Source: Lama guanicoe
Taxonomy: Eukaryota
DNA length: 64,000 bases
Reading direction: 5' to 3'
Assembly: GCA_013239625.1 (NCBI GenBank)
Contig: MU053792.1
Span: 886,112-950,111, forward strand
Part shown: positions 1-57,646 of the stretch, in pieces
Layout of the letters: each line of letters begins with the position of its first letter
Numbering within the stretch: position 1 is the stretch's first letter
Translations under genes and position numbers: made by a program
Notes under the pieces: generated by a model
Seen by the model: the letters and a program-made list of their open reading frames with translations, nothing else
Databases searched by the model: none
What the model was told of the DNA's origin: nothing

Positions 1-157
1 AACATGCCTCAAATGGTTTAATTGAGTTATTGTTGTGGGTAAAGATGATCAACACTGAAGAGAAATAAGAAAATGCTGCTAAAACAACTGAAGTCTGAAA
101 TGTACATGGGAGTTGAAGAAGATGAGTGAAAAGTAATGTTATAGGGTAGATGTCTTT

Positions 158-811
158 TTTTTTTTTCTTTGATCAGGGGCGGGCAAGGAATAGCAACTTT
201 ATTTGGCAAGTAGGCAGACCAAGATGGCAGACTAATGTCCTGGAGAATCATCTTTCCCAAGCCAGAACTCAGGCTCCTTTTATACTAAAAAGGGGAAGGG
301 GTGGTCGGTTGTTGCAAACTTCTTCGTGTAGGAATTCTTTGCTCTTGGAATCCTTTGTTCTTACAGCTGTCCACCTGGGTCAGGTCATCGTGTCCCTGTA
401 AAACCTCCACAAAACAAATGTGATTTTCTATTCTGCAACTTGCTGTCTTTATATGAGTGCAAAAGTGTTAGTATCCTTAAAGGTCAGAGCCTTGAGAATA
501 GGCTCTCCTTAATATTGCAGGCTATTGGCAACATTCTTTTACAAAAGGTACTAAGACTAAGCCTAGGAAACAGGGCACAGGGTTAAAGCAAAAGGAACTG
601 ATCTAATATGGAGTCAGATGTGTTCTTTTCTATTACGGTTCCCCGCTGTCAATGTCCGTTCCACAATCTTGTGGGAAAGGGGGCGACGACCGTTCTGGCT
701 ACTTCCTGCTGAAAAGGGGCACTGAGGGTTATGGAATGGAATTGATCAGCCAGGGAACATTCCCGGGCATCTTTAGGCAGCAATATAATCTCTCTCTTCT
801 TTTTCTCTCTT
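158..811 (-). mobile_element. Processed (retroposed) copy of the 3' end of an ERV1-class transcript: internal 3' region, PPT, U3-R, poly(A)
   Basis: Homologous to the LTR at 57121-57646 but lacking its U5 end. AATAAA on the minus strand at 198-203, then a poly(A) tract (T-run 155-170). Flanking direct repeats at 142-157 and 812-827 match 14/16. Confidence 0.75.
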
Positions 812-3140
812 TAGGATGGATGTCTTTAAACAACCTTTTAAAACATTCTAGAGGCTTCATACTCTATGTGGGTCTCGGGATTTCAGTGTACATGATTAGC
901 ATGTTAAAGTCTCTAAAAATTCCTACAGCAAAGAAGCCCCTTAAATCTTATTTAACTTAGTTTCCAGCAAAAGTAGCCATAGAGCTTTTTTTTCCCAATC
1001 ACCTCTATGCATTCTATTTGCTTGGAAAATAAAATAACATATTTCAAAGAAAATAAGGGAAGTTTTGAATTAAAACTAAGAGAGAAAAGAATGTTCAGAT
1101 GATGATATTTCAAATAAATATGATAAAGAAGAGAAATACAAAAGTAAAGATATAGTGGTGGGAACATGATAACTTAACAGAAGTCTCCCATAATGAGAGG
1201 TTCATGCAATTCTCAAAGCTGGAGATTCACAGAATTATAGACCTTCAGGTTGACTGGATTTTAGAGGTCCTCCATCCCATGAACAACATGTTCACATGTG
1301 CTTATGCAGGCCACGTTTGAACAATTTGATCTTGAACATCTTTGATATATAATTCAGCAGATAATTTCTCATATATCCTTTTACAACATATGTGATCATA
1401 TGTGACATTTAAGTATAATCTTTATTCCCATCATCACTGTCCCCTCAAGTTTTCTATATAAACCAAAATAGATATTTATTCATTGATGATATATTTAGTT
1501 AGGGACATCTCAAGAAATGAGATATTTTGATTAGTAGAAAGTTATCTCTACATATTACCATTTATGAAGTTCCCATTTTCAAAGAAAACACCATAAAATG
1601 TATTTAACACTGAACTGTACTCTACGTAGTTTGACCTTTAAATGAGCATTTAGAGCTTGTCACATAAATAGATTATATACTGGATTGAGTTGGATCTGCA
1701 TTAAGTTTAGCATATACACTTGAACTATCATTTTAAATTTACTGAATCCAAGTTACTTGAGCTTTGCTGGTAATTAGCTTTATTACAGATAGATGAAGAT
1801 TTTTGCAAAACTAGGTTTGGGCTGTGTTAAATTTTACCTGATAATTTTCCATCTGTGCGTCGCTACCTCAATCTGGTGTAGGATGGAATTGGAAACATCT
1901 CGCATGTGTGCTGTTATTCAAATAACAATATGTTCAGAGAGATTATTTGAAGAAAAGGAACCGTGTCTTCGTTTCATCGTGCAAAAGCTATTTTTTCTCA
2001 TAAACAAATTTGGCATTCATCAAATATGTAATGATAAAGAATGTCACTCTCACAAGTATCTATTTTTTTCATTTTCTTCTTAGGAAAGATATATTCATAT
2101 TGGCTTAAAATATGTCATTTTTCTGAATCGCTATGGCCTAAAGAAGGCAACAGGATGTAGTGGAAAAAAGAATGAAAATTATAGACAAAAGTCCCAGGCT
2201 TTATCACTTAATGACTGTATTTATTCTACATGTTTGTTTATGAATGCAAAGGATTACCCCCTCCACCTACATCTCATTAAATTATTTTTAAATTGTTTCT
2301 TATAAAATGTCTCTTTAATTAAAGAAAAGCATGCTGTTCAGTGATTCTTTCAAGCAGTTATGTGCATTTCAAATTCATAATCACAAACTCCACAGAATCT
2401 TTCGTGCCCCTTTGCAAATATTTTAAATCACTAAACTGAAATGCTGTTAAATCAAAATGGATCTCTGCTAAGATATACTCATAGTTAACATGATTAGAAA
2501 CATTTTAGTAAAGCTTTGTGGGTGTAGAATTTTAGAACCACTACAATACGCAGAGAAAAGAGTATACCCTTCAATGTGCTTTCCTGGAGCTGTTGGCAGT
2601 TACCATGATGATACGGAGTCAGGGAGTGGGAATTAAACACCCAAATTTCAGCATTTGCTTTTCACTCATATGCTATGACCTTATTCAAATTATATTGCTT
2701 ATAAGGCCCTGAATGAGGGAGAGGTATATATCAAGTGATCTGTGATCTGAAAGGATGAAACGGAAGGATTTTTTTTTAAGATTTGCAATAAAGTCAAAGC
2801 AAACCAGTACTAAGAATGGGTGTCCTTAAGGTATATAGGACAGTATGAAGGGGGAAATTGTGTGTCATGAATATAAAGAATTTATTTAATGAGGGTACTC
2901 ATTCATTCTTATTTACCTATGTAAGAGAATAAAGCTTTTCCACAAAATTTAGATATCTAAATAAAAATATTTTATGAAATTTGGGTCCTTGATTAGACAT
3001 AGAGATTAGAGACTTAGAATATAACATAGATGTGTTACACTACAGAGATGGAAGCTTGGGACAACTAGCCAACAAAAGTAACCATTTTTTACATTATCAA
3101 TTTCACTACCCCATTGGTAATTTTTTTTTAATTTGGAGGT

Positions 3141-7058: not shown

Positions 7059-7470
7059 GTTAGTGTAGGGAGGGAGGTATCTTCCATGAGAGTTCGTCAT
7101 CACAGCCTTCTTCAGGCAGATTGTAGTTTGAATTTATGTCACACACAGTCATCTGGGAATCTGGAAACTGAGAAATTATCATGAAACTGACCCTGAGGGT
7201 AGTGATACCAACACTGTGGTTATCTGTTAGAAGCAAACACGAAATATATTTGAAGGGATATTTAAAGTTAGTGTAGGGAGGGAGGTATCTTCTATGAGAA
7301 TTCGTCATCACAGCCTTCTTCAGGCAGATTGTAGTTTGAATTTATGCCACACACAGTCATCTGGGAATCTGGAAACAGAAATTATCATGAAACTGACCCT
7401 GAGGGTAGTGATACCAACATTGTGGTTATCTGTTAGAAGCAAACACGAAATATATTTGAAGGGATATTTA
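7059..7470. repeat. Direct tandem duplication, two copies of about 205 bp
   Basis: 7059-7264 and 7267-7470 differ by about 4 substitutions and one 2-bp indel. Confidence 0.95.
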
Positions 7471-13700: not shown

Positions 13701-16700
13701 AAATCCTTGAACAGATTATCAGTAAGGAAGCATTGGACTTAAACTGCCCATTAGACTACTTGGACCTAACAGACAAATACAGAATATTTCATCAAACTGC
13801 AGAGTATACATTCTTCTCAAGGGCATATGGAACATTCTTCAGAAGAGATCATATTATATAGGCCATAAAACCAGTCTTAAGCAGTTTAAGAATATCAAAA
13901 TTACATCAAGCATCTTTTCTGACCACAATGGTATGAAACTACAATTCAGTTACAATAAAAAAAATTTTTAAATCTACAAATATATGGAGATTAGCCAAAT
14001 GCTCCTGACAACCAATGGGTCAAAGAAGAAATCAAGAGAAATCAAAAATTACCTTGAGACAAATGAAAATGGAGATGGAAACACCATACCAGAACATATG
14101 GAATATACCTAAAGCAATTCTAAAATAAAAGTTCATAGCAATGCCCACACTAGTATAAGATGTTCACATTAAATAAAAAGAGAGAACTAAAATAAACACC
14201 TCAGAGAAGTGAAAATATAAGAACAAACTAAGCTCAAAGTTAGGTGAAAGAAGGAAATAACAGAGTGGAGATAAATGGAATAGAGACTAAAAAGACAATA
14301 GAAAAGATCAGTGAAACTAATTCTTGGGAAAAATAAACAAAACTGATAAATCTTTGACTAGCCAAAACAAAAGATGGAAGACTTTTAAATAATCAGAAAG
14401 GTAAGCAGATCCATTACAACTAACACCACACAAATACTAAAGATCATAAGAAACTGCTCTGAACAATTATAGCAACAAATTAGATAACCAAGAAGACATG
14501 GACAAATTCCTAGAAACATATGACCTACCAAGCATCAATTATAATTAAAAGGAAAATCTGAACTAACCAATAACTAGTAAGGAGTTTAAATCACTAGCCA
14601 AAACATTCCCCCACAGAAAAATGTCGGGACCATATGACTTCCTGGATAAATTCTACTAAACATTTAAAGAAGAATAAATATCAAAAAATTATTCCAATAA
14701 ATAGAAGCAGAGAGAACACTTCCAAACATATTTTACAAGGCCCACATTACACTGATACCAAAGCCAGACAAGGACACTATAAAAAAACAAATTTCAGACT
14801 GATATCACTGTTGAACATAGATGCAAAAGTCCTCCACAAAATACTAACAAAAAGAGCGAAAAATACATTAAAAGGACTATACTAAGATTATACCAAGATC
14901 AAGAGGGATTTGCCCAGATATGCAGGGATGGTTCAGCATCAGCAAATCAATCAATGTGATACACCACATTAAAAAAAGAATAAAAATCGTATGATCATCT
15001 CAATAAATGTAGGAAAAGCTTTTGATAAAATTTATGTCCTTTTATTGTAAAAACTCTCAAGAAATTGAGTATAGAAGAAACATATCTCATATAACAAACT
15101 CCATGTGTGACAAGCCTACATCTAACATCATACCCAATGTTGAAAAGCTAAAAACTGTTCATTCGTTTTTAATTATTTTATTTTGTACCGTTATTATTTT
15201 ATTGTGGGGGGTTTACTAGGTTTGTTTGTTTGTTTATTTATTTATTTATCTATTTATTTATTTTGGGAGGAGGTACTGGGGATTGAACCCAAGGCCTTGA
15301 ATATGCTAAGCATGCATTCAACCAATTGAGCTATACCCTTCTCCATCAAAGCTGTTCATTTTTAAGATTAGGTACAAGACAAGGAAGTTCACTCTATCCA
15401 CTATTTTTCAATATAGTACTGGAAGTCCTACATGGAGCAATGAGACAATAAACAAACAAACAAACAAACAAACAAATAAATAAATAATTAGCATTTCACT
15501 TGGAAAGGAAGAAGGAAAACTGTGTGTAGATGACATGATTGCATATACAGAAAAATTCCACAAAAAAGGATTCCACCAAAAACTTATCAGAACTAATAAA
15601 TGGCTTTATTAAATTTTCAGGATACAAAATTTATATGCAAAACTTAGTTGTGTTTCTATACAATGACGACAAACTAGATAAATTCTGAATAGCTGGAGGC
15701 ACTACATTTCCTAATTTCAAACTCTATTACAAAGCTATAATAATCAAAACACTATGGCATTGAAATAAAAATAGGCTTATACATAAATGGAACAGAAGTA
15801 TAGAGCCCAGGAATAAACTCCAACATACGTGGTCAGTTAACTTTCAACAAAGGGCCAAGAATATACAATGGGGAAAGAATAATCTCTTCAATAAATGGTG
15901 TTGTACTAACTGAATTTTCACATGCAAAAGAATAAAAATGGACTCATACTATACACAAAAATGTTAACTCAAAAATGGATTACTGAAAATAAGATTTGAA
16001 ACTATAAAACTCCTAGAAGAAAAACTACAGGGTAATCCCCTTGACATTGGTCCTGGCAATGAGTTTTTGGACTTGATACCAAAAACACAAGAGACAGAAA
16101 GAAAACTAAATAAGTGGGACTACATCAAATGAAAAAGCTTCTTCACAGCAAAAGAAATCATCAACAAGACAAAATGACAATCTGCTAAGTGTGAAAAAAT
16201 ATTGGCAAACCACATATCTAATAATGGGTTAATATCCAGCAAATACTAGGAATTCCTACAACTCAACAACAAAAAACAAATAACTCAATTTTAAATGGGC
16301 AAAGAGTCTGAGGAGACATTTTTGCAAAGAAGACAACCAAATGGCCAACAGTGATGATGCAATGCTCAACATAAATAATTATCAGAGAAATGTAAATCAA
16401 AACCACAGAGAGATAGCACCTCACACTTGTTAGGGTGGCTATTATCTAAACTACAAAAGATAACAGATACTGGTGAGAAAGTAAAGAAACAGAAATACCT
16501 GCACACTGTTGGTGGGAATGTAAGTTGGTACAGCCACTATAGAGAACAGTATGAAAGTTCTCCTATAAATTTAAAATGGAACTACCATATGATCTAGCAT
16601 TCCAACTTCTGGATGTATATCCAAAGGAAAAGAGATTATCTCAAAAAGATATCTGTACTCCCATGGTTATTGCAGCATTATTCACAATAGCCAAGGTATA

Positions 16701-17231
16701 AAAAAAACCCATGTCCATCAATGGATAAATGGAAAAAAATGTAATACACACACAGGAATATTATGCAGTCTTAACAAAAGAAAGAAATCCTGCCCTTTGT
16801 GACAACATGATTGAAACTAGAGGGTATTATGCTAAGTGAAATAAAATAGTGTAAAACAAGTACTACATGGTATCACTTATATCAGAAATTTTTAAAAATT
16901 AACTCATAGAAACACATAGAATGATGGTTGTCTGGGGCTAGAGGTTGGGTAAAATAGTAAAGGGGTACAAATCTTCAATTATGAGATCAAAAGATCTTAG
17001 GATAAAATGTACAACATAGTCATTATAGTTCATAATACTTTTATTATTGACATTCTCTAAGAGAGTAGAACTTGTGTTCTCATTTTTTTTTAAAGGTAAA
17101 CATCACAAGTGATGGATGTGTTCATTAAATTGATGGTGGGCGCAGTGAATACGTAAATCATCATATTGTTCAGCTTAAATATATTGCAACTTTATTTGTC
17201 AATTATCCCTCAAAACAGGTGAAAAAAAAAA
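10714..17231 (+). mobile_element. Near-full-length decayed L1 (L1MA-like), sense to GRIA4
   Basis: 5' UTR, ORF1 remnant (about 11900-12770), ORF2 remnant (for example ISLLNIDAKVLHKILTK), L1MA-type 3' UTR and A-tail. Many stops and an internal deletion near 15680. Confidence 0.93.
15164..15347 (-). mobile_element. tRNA-derived SINE (Vic-1-like, camelid) inserted in L1
   Basis: B-box (ggggattgaaccc) and A-box (ttgagctataccc) reverse complements, (TTTA/TTTG)n tail. TSD aaaactgttcatt (15151-15163) and aaagctgttcatt (15348-15360). Confidence 0.85.
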
Positions 17232-25000: not shown

Positions 25001-25606
25001 ATTGAATTTACTTTACTAATATTTGTTGAGGATTTTTGCCTTTATATTCACCAAAGATACTGATCTATAACATTTTTTTTGTAATGCTACTGTCTGGCTT
25101 TGGTATCAGCATAATTGTAAAGTAAATTTCAATGTGTTCCCTACTCTTCAATTTTTTGGAATAGTTTGAGAAGGATAAGTATTAACTCTTCTTTTTATGT
25201 TTGGTAAAATTCTCCTATGATACCGTGTTTGTCCTGGACTTTTGTTTGCTGGGATTTTTTTTGGGGGGGGATTACTAATTCAACTTCATCACTAGTGATT
25301 GGTCTATTTATATTGTCTATTTCTTTCTGTGTCACTCTAGGAGGACTATATGTTTCTAGAAATTTATCCATATCTTCTAGGTTGTCCAATTGATTGATAT
25401 ATAACTGTTCATAGTATTCTCTCATGATTCTTTTGTCTCTTTGATATTAGTTGTAAATTCTCCTCTTTCATTTCTTGTTTATTTGGGTCCTCTCTCTCTT
25501 TTTTCTTGATAAAACTGTCTAAAGACTTATCAGTTTTGTTTATCTTTTCAAAAATATCTCTGTTTTTTTAATATTTTCAATTATTTCTTGGGTCTCTGTT
25601 TTATTT

Positions 25607-26046
25607 TTTTAACTTTTTTTATTGATTTATAATCATTTTACAATGTTGTGTCAAATTCCAGTGTTCAGCACAATTTTTCAGTCATACATGGACATATACA
25701 TACTCATTGTCACATTTTTTTTCTCTGTGAGCTACCATAACATTTTGTGTATATTTCCCTGTGCTATACAGTACAATCTTGTTTATCTATTCTTCAGTTT
25801 TGAAATTTCAGTCTATCCCTTCCGACCCTCCACCCCCCTGGCAACCACAAGTCTGTATTCTCTGTCCATGAGTCTATTTCTGTCCTGTATTTATGCTTTG
25901 TTTTTGTTTGTTTGTCTGTTTGTTTTTGTTTTCATTTGTTTAGATTCCACATATGAGTGATCTCATATGGTATTTTTCTTTCTCTTTCTGGCTTACTTCA
26001 CTTAGAATGACATTCCCCAGGAGCATCCATGTCACTGCAAATGGCA
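25607..26046 (-). mobile_element. Young 5'-truncated L1 3' end nested in L1
   Basis: Closely matches the young 3' ends at 27266 and 35113. TSD tctgttttattt (25595-25606) and tctattttattt (26047-26058). Confidence 0.88.
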
Positions 26047-27265
26047 TCTATTTTATTTATTACTCTCTATTCTTAGTTATTTCCTTCCTCTGTTAACTTT
26101 TGGCTCTATTTATTCTTTTTCTAATTCCTTAAGATGATAAGTTAGGTTGTTTATTTGAGATTTTTCTTGTTTCTTGAGATAATCCTGTATAACTATAAAC
26201 TTACCTCTTATAACTGCTTTTGCTGTGTCCCATTTTGAAAATGTGTATTTTTATTTTCACTTGTCTTGAGGTATTTTCTGATTTCCTCTTTGATTTCTTC
26301 ATTTACTCATTGGTTTTTAGTAGCATATTATTTAGTTAACACATGTTTGTGGGTTTTTTGTCCTTTTTTTTTCCTGTAATTGATTTCAGGTTTCATACTG
26401 TTGTGGCCAGAAAAAATGCTTGATGTAATTTCTATACTCTTAAATTTGTCGAGGTTTGTTTTGTGGCCTAACTTGTGATCTGTTCTGGAGAATGTCCCAT
26501 GTGCACTTGAGAAGAATGTGCATTCTTCTGTTTAGAAATGAAATGTCCTGTAGATAGCAATTAAGCCCAACTGGTCTACTGTGTAACATACAGCCTCTGT
26601 TGCATTATTGATTTTCTGTCTGGTTGATCTGTCCATTGATGTAAGTGAGATGTTAAAGTCCCCTACTATTGTTGTGTTATTGTCAGTTTCTTCCTTTAGG
26701 TCTATTAGTATTTTTTAATATAATTAGGTACTCCTATTTTAGTATATACACATATACATATATATGTTAACATGTTATATCCTCTTCTTGTATTAATTTC
26801 TTTATCATTACATAATGTTTATTTTTGTCTTTTCATATGGATTTTGTTGTAAACTCTACTTTGTCTGATATGAGTATTGATTATTATTCCAGCTGTCTTG
26901 TCATTTCCTTTTGTCATGAAATATCTTTTCATCCCCTCACTTTCAGTCCGTGTTATGTCTTTAGAGCTGAAGAGAGTCTCTTATAAACAGCAAATATATG
27001 GGTCTTTTTTTTTAAATCAGCCATCCTTTTTCTTTTGATTGTAGCATTTAGTCCACTGACACTTAAAGTGAGTACTGATAGGTATGTACTTATTGCCATT
27101 TTGTCACTTGCATTTTGTATTTTGGGGTTTTTTTGTTTTTTTGGTTTTTTTTTCCTTGTCTGAGCTATTTTATATATTTTTTTATTGAAGTACAGTCAGT
27201 TTACAATGTTGTGTCAATTTCTGGTATACAACACAATGCTTCAGTCATATAAGAACACACATATA

Positions 27266-27474
27266 AGATACTGACAGGCATATGTAGAATAGATAAACAA
27301 GATTATACTGTATAGCACAGGGAAATATATACAAGATCTTGTGGTAGCTCATAGCAAAAAAAATGTGACAATGAATATATGTATATTCAAGTATAACTGA
27401 AAAATTGTGCTCTGCACTGGAATTTAACATAACATTGTAAAATGACTATAACTCAATTAAAAAATGTTAAAAAA
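27266..27474 (+). mobile_element. Short L1 3' end, third-level nested insertion
   Basis: TSD aagaacacacatata (27251-27265) and aataacacacatata (27475-27489), A-tail, orientation opposite to its host. Confidence 0.9.
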
Positions 27475-29812
27475 AATAACACACATATACTCATTTTCAT
27501 GTTCTTTTTCACCATAAGTTACTAAAAGATGTTGAATATAGTTCCCTGTGCTATACAGTATGAAATTGTTTAACATATACATATGTGTTATATATATATA
27601 TATATATATATATAAATATTAGTTAGTATCTGCAAATCTTGAACACTCAGTTTATCCCTTCCCACTCCCTTCCACACTGGTAACCATAAGTTTGTTTTCT
27701 ATGTCCATGAATCTGTTTCTGTTTTGTAAATAAGCTCATTTGTCTTTTTTTTACCCAATTCCATGTATAAGTGATATCATGTGGTATTTTTCTTTCGTTT
27801 TCTGGTTTACTTCACTTAGAATGACAATCTCCAGGTCCATTCATGTTGCTGCAAATGGCATTATTTTATTATTTTTTATGGCTGAGTAGTATTCCACTAT
27901 AAAAATGTACCATAGCTTCTGTATCCAGTCATCTGTCAAAAGATATTTAGGTTGTTTACATGTCTTCACTATTGTATATAGTGCTGCTATGAACATTGGG
28001 GTGCATGTAACTTTTTGGATTAAGGTTTCTCTGGATATATGCCCAGGAGTGGGATTGCTGGATCATATGGTTAGTCTATTTTTAGTCTTTTGAGAAATCT
28101 CCATTCTGTTTTCCATAATTGTTGCATCAAACTACATTCCCACCAACAGTGTAGGAGGGCTCCCTTTTCTCCACACCCTCTCCAGCATTTATTGTTGGTG
28201 AACATTTGAAGGATGGCCATTCTGACATATGAGATGATACCTCATTGTAGTTTTGATTTGCATTTCTCTGATAATTAGCAATATTGAGTATTTATATGTT
28301 TATATATTATGGAGTTTAAGCCCTTGTCAGTCTCATCTTTTGCAAATATTTTCTCCCATTCCATAGGTTGTCTTTTTGTTTTGCTTATGGTATCCTTTGC
28401 TGTGCAAAAGCATATAACTTTAATTAGATTCCATTTGTTTATTTTTGCTTTTATTTCTATTGCTTGAGTAGACTGCTCTAGGAGAACATTGCTGAGATTT
28501 ATGTCAGATAATATTTTGCCTATGTTTTCTTCCAAGAGGTTTATAGTGTCTTGTCTTATGTTTAAGTCTTCAAGCCATTTTGAGTTTATTTTTGTGTATG
28601 GTGTAAGGGAGTATTCTAACTTCACTGACTGACATGCTGCTGTCCAGTTTTCCCAACACCATTTGCTGAAGAGACTGTCTTTTTCCCATTGTATGTTCTT
28701 GCCACCTTGGTCAAAGATTAATTGACCAAAAGTTTGTGGGTTTATTTCTGTGCTCCCTATTCTGTTCCATTGAGCCATATGTCTGTTTTTGTACCAGTAT
28801 CATGCTGTTTAGATTGTGGTAGCTCTGTAGCATTGTCTGAAGTCAGGGAGAGTTATTCATCTAGCTTCACTCTTTGTCTTCATTCTGGGTCTTTTGTGAT
28901 TCCATAAAAATTTTAAGATTATTTGTTCTAGTTCTGTGAAAAATGTAATTTGATAGGGATTGCATTAAATCTGTAAATTGCTCTGGGTAATATGACCAAT
29001 TTAACAATATTAAGTCTTCCAATCTAAGAGCATGGGATATCTTTCCATTTCTTTAAATCATCTTTAATTTCCTTATTCAATGTTTTGTAGTTCCCCATGT
29101 ATTTCTTTGACTTCCATGGTCAGATTTATTCCTAAGTATTTTATTTTTTGATGCAGTTTTAAAGGGGATTGTTTCTTTATTTGCCTTTTCTGGTATTTCA
29201 TTGTTAGTGTAAAGGAATGCCACTGATTTCTCCATGTTAATCTTGTATCCTGCTATCTTGCCAATTTCCTTTATCACCTCTAATAGCCTTTGTGTGTAAT
29301 CTTTAGGGTTTTCTATATATAATATGTCATCTGCATATAATTAAAAATTTACCTGTTCTCTTTCAATTTGGATACCTTTAATTTCTTTTTCTTGTCTAAT
29401 TGCTGTGGCTAGGACTTCCAAGACTATGTTGAATAGACGTGGAGAGCGGGCATCCTTGTCTTAATCTAGATTTTAGCAGGAAGGCTTTCAGCTTTTCACC
29501 ATTGAGTATTATGCTGGCTGTAGGTTTGTCATACATATTTTATTATGTTGAGATATGTTCCCTCTATACTCATTTTGGTTAGAGTTTTTATCCTAAATGG
29601 GTGTTGAATTTCATCAAATGCTTTTTCTCCATCTATTGAGATGATCATGTGATTTTTGTCCTTTCTCTTGATGTGGTGTATCACGTTGATTGATCTGTGT
29701 ATGTTGAACCATCCTTGTGTCCCTGGGATAAACCCAACTTGGTCGTGCTGTATAATCTGTTTTATGTGTTGTTGAATTCTGTTTGCCAATGTTTTGTTGA
29801 GGATTTTTGCAT

Positions 29813-29978
29813 CTAAGTTAATCAACATTATTGGCCTGTAGTTTTCTTTTTTGGTGGTGTCTTTGGCTTTGATATCAGGGTGATGGTGGCTTGCCTAAGT
29901 TAATCAACATTATTGGCCTGTAGTTTTCTTTTTTGGTGGTGTCTGTGTCTGGCTTTGATATCAGGGTGATGGTGGCTT
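29813..29978. repeat. Tandem duplication of about 80 bp within L1 ORF2
   Basis: ctaagttaatcaacattattggcc...ggtggctt occurs at 29813-29892 and again at 29895-29978. Confidence 0.92.
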
Positions 29979-34791: not shown

Positions 34792-35112
34792 AAATGCATA
34801 CTTTAAGTCAATTTTAAAAGGAGTTAACAGGGAGTCTCTCCCATTCTGTTTCATGTTCCTTCTGTTAACCGCACTAGAGCTGTCTCAGTATGATTTAGTC
34901 AACCTATGAACCTGAAATACAAAGGGGCAAAAATGTTATCTGAATTAGGTAAACCTTAAAGATAAGCATTTATTAAGCACCCAAGATGTGATGGATCTAT
35001 AGATTTGCATCAGTAACCATTAGGATATCTGAAGTTTCATAATTTATTCATTTTACTTTCCCTCTTATTCCCAGAGGATTATGAATTCTAAATGAAAATT
35101 AAAAAGGAAATT

Positions 35113-35300
35113 GTAGAATAGATAAACAAGATTACACTATAGCACAGGGAAATATACACAAAATGTTATGATAAATCACAGAGAAAAAAATGTGACAATG
35201 AGTGTGTATATGTCCATGAATGACTGAAAAATTGTGCTGAACACTGGAATTTGACACAACATTGTAAAATGATTATAAATCAATAAAAAATGTTAAAAAA
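35113..35300 (+). mobile_element. Young L1 3' end fragment
   Basis: Near-identical reverse complement of 25610-25790, with aataaa, A-tail and an aaggaaatt/aagaaatt TSD-like pair. Confidence 0.88.
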
Positions 35301-36435
35301 AAAGAAATTAATCTTTCCTGATCACTAACCATTGTGAAATGCAAGCATTGTTGAATAGCCTATTTCAACAAGCAGAAAGCCTTTCCCTTGGTCTCCCCTC
35401 ATAGTTTACTCAGTTACTTAACCATGGTCCACCTCCCCCTTCTGTCCCAGGACTATAGAGTTATAATTTTATTAAAACCTTTCCCAGAACTTTCAGTTCC
35501 ACAGTATTCTCTGGGTTACACTGCCTCACAGTCTAGATCTTATCAATGTTCTGTGTAATAATTATTTTTAAATATATGAAAGAAAAAACATTGCCTATAC
35601 TCCTACAGACATAGTTAAAATTAACTGAGCCACCCACAGTTCTTTCAGATCATAACTAAAAGGGGTTTATAATCAGATTTGGCAATATTTTTTCCTTTAC
35701 CCTCAGCATAGCAACAGAATGGAGTGAGAGAAACGTGAGCCATTATTTATCAGTTAGACCTTACATCAGATGATCTTTTTTGTATATATCTTTTTATTGA
35801 AGTGATTTTTCTGAAAGCTGCAGCTTTGCCTGTGTGTCGTGCAGCTATGGGATAATGCTACCAGAGAAAATTTGGCAGGACTTCTATCTCAGCCACTGTT
35901 AAAATAAAATAATAATGTCATTGATTTAGTAACTAATGCAATAGTTGAATCTCTGTGGCTTTTAGAAAGTTGAAATTATTTGCCTGTCTGTAGGTCTGCC
36001 CTATCTTCTCATAGAAGCAAACAAATGTTCAACTGACATTTTACTAGCTAGAGACTGATAGACAGTGTTTTTCCCATTTCAGAAACATAAATGTGATTTC
36101 TGGTGCCTAGTTTCTTTCCAAGTGAAATGAGAATATTACTGATGAGCTGTCAAATTAGGTGGTGTGAAATAAACATTTGCTGATTAAATGGATTAATCAT
36201 AGCTGCTATTTACTGAATTCAAACCAGATGTGCTAGCTATTTTAGCATTCATTCTTATTGGCATGTAGGAAACCTAAGGCTAGAAATTTACAGAGGTGGG
36301 ATTGAGAACCTGGGCTGTTTTCTACAGTATCTCCCTGCCTCTCCTAGGGACATTATAATAAATACCAAAACTGAAAACACACATATTTGTGTAAGAATAC
36401 ACAAGAGTATGGTGTTAAAAAAGCAAACTTGATAC

Positions 36436-44664: not shown

Positions 44665-45520
44665 NNNNNNNNNNNNNNNNNNNNNNNNNNNNNNNNNNNN
44701 NNNNNNNNNNNNNNNNNNNNNNNNNNNNNNNNNNNNNNNNNNNNNNNNNNNNNNNNNNNNNNNNNNNNNNNNNNNNNNNNNNNNNNNNNNNNNNNNNNNN
44801 NNNNNNNNNNNNNNNNNNNNNNNNNNNNNNNNNNNNNNNNNNNNNNNNNNNNNNNNNNNNNNNNNNNNNNNNNNNNNNNNNNNNNNNNNNNNNNNNNNNN
44901 NNNNNNNNNNNNNNNNNNNNNNNNNNNNNNNNNNNNNNNNNNNNNNNNNNNNNNNNNNNNNNNNNNNNNNNNNNNNNNNNNNNNNNNNNNNNNNNNNNNN
45001 NNNNNNNNNNNNNNNNNNNNNNNNNNNNNNNNNNNNNNNNNNNNNNNNNNNNNNNNNNNNNNNNNNNNNNNNNNNNNNNNNNNNNNNNNNNNNNNNNNNN
45101 NNNNNNNNNNNNNNNNNNNNNNNNNNNNNNNNNNNNNNNNNNNNNNNNNNNNNNNNNNNNNNNNNNNNNNNNNNNNNNNNNNNNNNNNNNNNNNNNNNNN
45201 NNNNNNNNNNNNNNNNNNNNNNNNNNNNNNNNNNNNNNNNNNNNNNNNNNNNNNNNNNNNNNNNNNNNNNNNNNNNNNNNNNNNNNNNNNNNNNNNNNNN
45301 NNNNNNNNNNNNNNNNNNNNNNNNNNNNNNNNNNNNNNNNNNNNNNNNNNNNNNNNNNNNNNNNNNNNNNNNNNNNNNNNNNNNNNNNNNNNNNNNNNNN
45401 NNNNNNNNNNNNNNNNNNNNNNNNNNNNNNNNNNNNNNNNNNNNNNNNNNNNNNNNNNNNNNNNNNNNNNNNNNNNNNNNNNNNNNNNNNNNNNNNNNNN
45501 NNNNNNNNNNNNNNNNNNNN
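44665..45520. other. Assembly gap (856 N)
   Basis: Run of N. Confidence 1.
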
Positions 45521-46182
45521 TTTTTTCAAACGCAGGAAGTGCTTTTACTTTTCTGGTGTCATCTCTTCTCAGCTTTTTTCTTCCTATTAAAAAAGCATCA
45601 ATATTTTTCTTTTCTTCTCTCTTGATCCTAAAATACAAGCATTGCATTTTTTTCCTCTTTTCCTTTATGCCTTATGTCTTTAATTCTACTTTATTTCTTA
45701 TTTTTATTTTCTTGCCATCTATAAAGATGATGTAATGGCTTTCTCTACTCAGAGGTGTGTTGGTCTAGGCAGGGAAGGATGCATATCTATGTTTGGCTTG
45801 GTACCTTGCTTAAGTACCTCAGTTTCCTTTGGTCATCCCCTTCCAATTATGAGGGTGCTTACTTAACCTTAAGCCTATCTTGTCATGTACTTGAACAATA
45901 TATAGTAAAGCTTTTAATATGGTAATGCTTTTTTTTATTTCTCAATGATTTTACTCAAGAGAAAAGACATATTGTTAATCATAATTCTTTTTGCTTCAAA
46001 CTAAAAACCCCAGAAAACTAATTGTCAAGATTTCCAACCAAAAACATTAGTTGTAAAATGAATTTATATTGCTTTGTTCTTGCTGTAGGAAAAGTGAAGA
46101 ATTTTTTTGTTACTAATAACTAAATATATATTTCATGAATCAATACACTAGGAGTGTCCCTAGTGAATCCTCATTTTAATCT

Positions 46183-46385
46183 TTTTTTTTTAGATTTTTT
46201 TTCAATTGAGGTATAGTCAGTTCACAATGTTGTGTCAATTTCTGGTGTACAGCACAAGTCTTCAGTCATACATTAATATACATATATTCATTTCATATTC
46301 TTTTTCACCATAAGCTACTACAAGATATTGAATATATTTCCCAGTGCTATAAAGTATAAACTTGTTTATCTATTTTATATATAAT
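46183..46385 (-). mobile_element. Short L1 3' end fragment
   Basis: T-tail followed by ttgaggtatagtcagttcacaatgttgtgtc, the same family as 27180-27570. Confidence 0.85.
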
Positions 46386-57120: not shown

Positions 57121-57646
57121 TGTTACCGAGTCCAAACTCATTCTTCGTGGCACTAAAGGCTAATAAATCAGGAGATGAAGTATTGGGGCAAGGAATAGAG
57201 ACTTTATTCCAAAAGCCAGCAGACCGAGAGGATGGCAGACTAATGTCTTGGAGAACTATCCTGCTCCAGTCAGAATACACGCTCCTTTTTTACAAAAAAA
57301 AAATGGTGGGGGGGGGGACGGGGGTTCGTTGTTGCAAACTTCTTGCTGCAGGAATTCTTTGTTCTTGCAGACATCCACCTGGGTCAGGTCATGGTGTCCC
57401 TGTGAACTTCTAACAAAACAAAGGTTATTCTCTATTTTGCAACTTTCCATCCCTACTAAATGCAGAAGTGCTAACATCATTAAAGGTCAGAGCCCCCAGA
57501 AGAGGCTCTCCTGTCTATTTCAGGCTAAAGGCAACATTGTTTCACAAAAGGTGCAGAGCTGGCAAGACTGAGCCTAGAAAGAGGGGCACTGTGGTTAAAA
57601 CTAAAGGAACAGATCAAGTGTAGAGGCAGATTTGTTCTCTATTCCA
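57121..57646 (-). mobile_element. ERV1-type solo LTR (complete U3-R-U5), related to the element at 158-811
   Basis: TG...CA termini, 4-bp TSD tcat/ttat, minus-strand AATAAA at about 57203. Colinear similarity with 179-637. Confidence 0.88.

Follow-up and report, generated by a model that had tools for sequence, protein, structure and literature searches.

Retroviral integrase produces target site duplications (TSDs) of 4–6 bp and complete LTRs, whereas target-primed reverse transcription by L1 produces longer TSDs, poly(A) and 5′ truncation. ERV copies of the second kind are represented by the processed pseudogenes of HERV-W. According to the cited passages of two papers, processed pseudogenes account for 135 of the 213 human loci of HERV-W (HERV17/LTR17), a group of catarrhine primates (PMC5016936, PMC5537654). 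The definition published for them, as excerpted here, combines a 3′ LTR consisting of U3-R, a poly(A) tail, a TT/AAAA site and a 5–15 bp duplication (PMC5016936). One passage calls HERV-W the sole human group mobilised in this way and states that the determinants are unknown (PMC5537654). For platyrrhine ERV-W, the cited portion of the literature reports no L1-made processed copies (PMC6995185), and thus the trait is not fixed even within the ERV-W group. Two retrocopies of HERV-K(HML-2) rec mRNA, ERVK-30 (2q32.1) and ERVK-31 (5q15), appear in the excerpted part of another study (PMC4351823). In Hippotraginae antelopes, a retrocopy of ARTenvV is described, in the section cited, as L1-made, with a 14-bp duplication, a TTAAAA site and a short A-run (PMC9604959).

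The locus described here is an insert of about 650 nt at positions 158–811, on the minus strand, of a 64-kb stretch of Lama guanicoe contig MU053792.1 (hereafter the window; Table 1). It shares the 3′ half of the HERV-W definition, namely a U3-R end, a poly(A) tail, a duplication and a TT/AAAA-like site. The R region is also of like size, approximately 90 nt in HERV-W and, as the position of a TATA-like box implies, approximately 85 nt in the insert. The host and the LTR family are different, however, the 5′ R-U5 end is absent, and a single copy stands against the family-wide pattern of HERV-W. The insert works like L1-made ERV copies, and we do not claim that it belongs to the ERV-W lineage. 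The HERV-K rec copies are the best model for a one-off event, being sporadic, L1-made, tailed, bounded by an L1-type duplication and, in ERVK-31, 5′-truncated. They derive from a beta-like ERV, however, and their splice joints and their empty sites in monkeys have been demonstrated. ARTenvV is likewise an artiodactyl ERV-derived RNA copied by L1, but its source is a domesticated, spliced env gene and, in the part of that study cited, its empty sites have been demonstrated and no U3-R end is described. The SINE-R/SVA elements of hominoids also carry an ERV 3′ end and an LTR up to the poly(A) site, and are moved by L1. SVA, however, is composite, occurs in many copies and includes Alu-like and VNTR portions, none of which were seen at 158–811.

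A search of the main texts of freely accessible papers gave no report of L1-made ERV copies in camelids. The main text of a camelid TE survey contains neither "pseudogene" nor "solo", and its LTR set, by the section cited, requires two LTRs (PMC8605555); ERV surveys built on paired LTRs in this way miss such copies. The preliminary description of this DNA knew of no account of the event in camelids, and this stands within the search, but an L1-made ERV-env retrocopy from an artiodactyl has already been published in the excerpt cited (PMC9604959). The insert provides one clear example of an event that is known but rarely documented.

Table 1. Features of the insert and of the sister LTR (positions in the window).
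Feature	Positions	Strand	Remarks
TSD copy at 5′ end of insert	812–827	−	TTT precedes on the minus strand, giving a TT/AAAG L1-type cut site
Purine-rich 5′ end of insert, point of 5′ truncation	787–811	−	23/25 purines, 15 A
Segment upstream of LTR, 174 nt	638–811	−	50% G+C, 6 CpG
Degenerate polypurine tract adjoining LTR start	638–650	−	10/13 purines, weak
LTR, U3-R part only, 467 nt	171–637	−	starts CG, not TG
TATA-like box	280–284	−	81 nt upstream of AATAAA; putative function
AATAAA poly(A) signal, single in LTR	198–203	−	ends 27 nt before the tail
A-tail, 13 nt (12 A and one G)	158–170	−	runs into three A of the target duplication
TSD copy after tail	142–157	−	14/16 match to 812–827
Complete solo LTR of related family, 526 bp	57121–57646	−	TG...CA ends

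The layout given in the preliminary description, with about 170 bp upstream (174 nt as measured), the LTR, AATAAA and a tail after 27 nt, was confirmed. The insert is bounded by TAGGGTAGATGTCTTT on the left and TAGGATGGATGTCTTT on the right, and both of the differences between these two copies are transitions. The duplication is 16 bp long, or 13 bp without the shared A's. Across the 64 kb and both strands, these two are the only sites within two mismatches of the left copy, so that the flanking pair noted earlier is the sole such pair in the window. Its borders are sharp, with 8/30 and 6/30 matches in the adjoining 30 nt. When the first 13 bases are shuffled, 3.3 × 10−4 such matches are expected by chance per 700 bp. 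The window is rich in repeats, and random queries drawn from it found a partner within 700 bp in 15 of 2965 cases and within 8 kb in 117 of 2955. There are 30 A-runs of at least 9 nt; three have a partner with at most two mismatches within 8 kb, and only the A-run of the insert has one within 1 kb. The sense-strand site TT/AAAG is one base off the L1 consensus, for which 5′-TTTT/A is given in the passage cited (PMC4476161), and the L1-type cut site TCTTT/AA of the preliminary description is upheld. That description had also considered that the T-run might predate the insertion. This is contradicted by the copy at 812–827, which has only three T; the long T-run was therefore not part of the target. 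The two differences in 16 bp amount to 12.5% (95% interval 1.6–38%). At 2.2 × 10−9 substitutions per site per year, the implied age is approximately 28 million years, with a range (4–87) too wide to use.

Within the 64-kb window, nothing but the sister LTR (57121–57646) is related to the insert. The sister LTR carries the marks of integrase, with complete ends and a 4-bp flanking repeat, TCAT/TTAT, that matches at 3/4 positions. The insert at 158–811 has neither complete TG...CA ends nor a 4–6 bp duplication. The LTR ends and the stretch after AATAAA presumably resemble MER4-group or MER34- or MER41-like ERV1 LTRs of laurasiatherians. The two LTRs are identical at 351 of 447 aligned bases (78.5%, K2P 0.26), and thus the sister LTR is only a distant reference for the R/U5 border. 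It extends 45 nt (57121–57165) past the last base of the element and has no A-run at that point. The alignment reaches the element's last base only with a 10-nt gap (57176–57185), after which 7 of the 10 final bases match. The earlier claim of a lost U5 therefore holds in that the sister LTR's end is absent from the element, although the size is 45 nt plus the 10-nt gap and not 60 nt. In the sister LTR, 37 nt separate AATAAA from the point matching the element's end, more than the usual 10–30 nt between signal and cleavage. Thus, either R was shorter in the insert's parent, or the alignment of the last 10 bases is wrong. The missing U5 end is absent from the flank after the tail (local score 17.0 against a shuffle mean of 17.4, with 52% of 500 shuffles as high), and we found no displaced or diverged U5 elsewhere in the 64-kb window. 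A 16-bp doublet lies in the U3 of the element (331–362). The sister LTR shows a 16-nt gap there, and the doublet was therefore gained or lost after the two LTRs split.

The segment upstream of the LTR is similar to the LTR in being rich in G+C and CpG, and is unlike the flanks, which have 31–33% G+C; the window as a whole has 4.9 CpG per kb. Given its position and composition, and a presumed resemblance to ERV1 env tails, the segment probably derives from an ERV1 internal region, at its 3′ end (env tail). One of its three frames has 53 open codons and reaches a stop immediately ahead of the LTR. As 912 of 5000 shuffles do as well, we rejected the open frame as proof of env. The purine tract of the preliminary description does adjoin the LTR, but it is weak, as the plain flank beside the sister LTR has 8/13 purines in the corresponding comparison; it was likewise rejected as proof that the segment is internal. 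Within the 64-kb window, the 638–811 segment occurs only once.

With the 16-bp duplication, the tail, the cut motif and the LTR that stops at its poly(A) site, the L1-type retroposition proposed for this locus is well supported. We are highly confident that the insertion was RNA-mediated and of L1 type, the part of L1 being read from this signature and from the setting. Remnants of LINE reverse transcriptase belong to this setting (RVT_1 in 4 of the 7 frames scanned, in long repeats), as do short LINE 3′-end copies, 2 of the 4 examined having A-rich flanking repeats (12 and 17 bp). Almost certainly, the insert is a 5′-truncated retrocopy of L1 type, made from an RNA whose 3′ end lay at the poly(A) site of an ERV LTR. 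Its template was rather likely the transcript of an ERV provirus, probably ERV1 and gamma-like, either genomic or spliced, that was copied in trans by L1. In such a sequence of events, a provirus elsewhere would have been transcribed and its RNA cut and polyadenylated 27 nt past the AATAAA of the 3′ LTR, so that U5 would never have been in the RNA. The L1 ORF2p would bind the poly(A) and nick an A+T-rich target at 5′-TCTTT/AA-3′, and the freed T's would prime reverse transcription. Copying would halt after approximately 650 nt, and a second-strand cut 13–16 bp away would duplicate the target. The copy would have been dead on arrival, with no 5′ LTR, U5 or gene, while retaining the poly(A) signal and a putative U3 promoter.

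The choice of template is where other readings have to be weighed. The insert begins 174 nt before the LTR and includes no part of a 5′ LTR, whose R-U5 would mark a whole proviral RNA. Because its 5′ end is lost, the provirus's own RNA and a host or L1 read-through RNA are indistinguishable. The same L1 chemistry may thus have acted on a host mRNA or lncRNA, or on an L1 transcript that had passed its own weak poly(A) site (an orphan 3′ transduction), where the RNA ran into the 3′ end of a provirus or a solo LTR and ended at the poly(A) signal there. The ERV would then be a passenger, truncation would have removed everything upstream, and the ERV family would have no special link to L1. Such an RNA would leave the same U3-R end with its tail and duplication, L1 is abundant in the window, and ERV loci are frequently transcribed from outside according to the excerpt cited (PMC11359688). 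The composition of 787–811 agrees with this as well, the abundance of A in these first 25 nt being what the tail of a source element would show; the stretch may be ERV sequence or the decayed remnant of an A-rich tail. Proviral RNA as the template is further weakened in that there is one copy, that the R/U5 border is judged from an LTR that differs by 21.5%, and that the prior for L1 copying of ERV families other than HERV-W is low, given the sole standing of that group among human ERVs in the passage cited (PMC5537654). On the other hand, one frame is open across the purine stretch to the stop just before the purine tract, a weak point against read-through. Read-through also needs a sense-oriented promoter or an L1 upstream of the ERV end, and a transduction cut exactly within the source's tail would be a coincidence. 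We regard a read-through template as a real but rather unlikely source of the insert.

The insert could also belong to a recurring, non-autonomous ERV-derived retroposon that multiplied from a single master locus or a small number of them, in the manner of the SINE-R part of SVA. The order of env end, U3-R and tail equals that of SINE-R. SVA holds HERV-K10 fragments and is thought to be mobilised by L1 (PMC2912911, in the part cited), and clusters of short ORF-less ERV1 elements occur in alpaca, although with two LTRs, in the section cited of PMC8605555. We consider this very unlikely, as the upstream segment occurs once in the 64 kb and the insert has no VNTR or SINE head, the only repetition being the doublet in U3 and no tRNA gene being present. 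An origin with no RNA step is exceedingly improbable. Deletion would have stripped an ordinary provirus of its 5′ part and U5, and the T-run and the 16-mer pair would be due to chance or to an unrelated tiny insertion. Deletions are frequent in old ERVs, the repeat contains 2 mismatches and its borders were chosen after the fact, and 2 other A-runs of the 30 have 2-mismatch partners approximately 3 kb off. This would demand four coincidences, however: a break 27 nt past AATAAA, an A-run at that break, a 14/16 repeat at the other break (15/2965 in the null) and an L1-type cut motif. A 5′-truncated copy of a proviral transcript is the reading that we favour.

The locus shows that both L1 and this ERV were at work in one germ line, and the insertion might serve as a presence/absence marker in camelid phylogeny. 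The broader claim of the preliminary description, that the ERV1 family was mobilised in trans by L1 in this lineage, rests on one copy and is as yet unsupported. One of the two family copies in the window is of L1 type, in a window picked for that reason. We think it doubtful that the HERV-W pattern is repeated here, i.e., that a camelid ERV1 family has tens to hundreds of loci spread by L1 from RNA, all ending at one R border and perhaps derived from few master loci as a SINE-R-like retroposon. A bulk pattern, if true, would add a second, independent instance of an ERV captured in bulk by L1, and a comparison with HERV-W could then address what turns an ERV into a substrate for L1, be it features of its RNA or germ-line timing. 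The passage cited names HERV-W as the one group copied in bulk (PMC5537654), which makes a genome-wide count worthwhile. A pattern around the poly(A) signal had 0 loci in viral contigs. One locus with the pattern on a metagenome contig was rejected as chance, since it matches over only 22–26 bases in microbial-looking DNA; the collections scanned were viral and metagenomic, not mammalian genomes. Among 24 listed sequencing runs (4 organisms, 9 studies), 20 contain 0.65–0.77 of the sampled words of 120–2600. The element makes up 28% of that interval, so that flanking sequence by itself could account for approximately 0.72, to which further copies of the family might contribute words. The flank could thus nearly explain the share of words, and the run data are not evidence for presence or fixation of the insertion.

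Several other features of the window were observed. A LINE 3′ end of approximately 200 bp occurs in four copies, at 27280–27483 and 35108–35305 on the plus strand and at 25597–25800 and 46180–46382 on the minus strand. The copy at 27280–27483 is flanked by the 17-bp repeat (2 mismatches) and that at 35108–35305 by the 12-bp repeat (1 mismatch), and the other two have candidates of 8–9 bp only. The four copies are of like length, which points to preferential truncation at one position or to a short derived element. Two further A-runs on the minus strand have 14/16 partners. The pair at 17091 and 20222 lies 3.1 kb apart around an L1 fragment and is possibly the target duplication of that fragment. 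The pair at 26372 and 29664 lies 3.3 kb apart, and its partner is inside an L1 fragment and probably due to chance. L1-to-L1 paralogy was rejected for both pairs, as their flanks match at only 8–10/30 positions; they may be true duplications or chance.

The right flank of the insert (~840–990) is presumably an ancient hAT (MER5-type) DNA transposon remnant and, if so, would be a good anchor for the empty site in other mammals. A tandem duplication of a 208-bp unit, 97% identical, is present at 7059–7470 and is either recent or an assembly artefact. An 82-bp tandem duplication (95%) lies within an L1 reverse transcriptase region (29813–29978), and an assembly gap of 856 N occupies 44665–45520. 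A tRNA-derived SINE with an AAAT-repeat tail, which resembles the camelid Vic-1, is located at ~15190–15345 on the minus strand.
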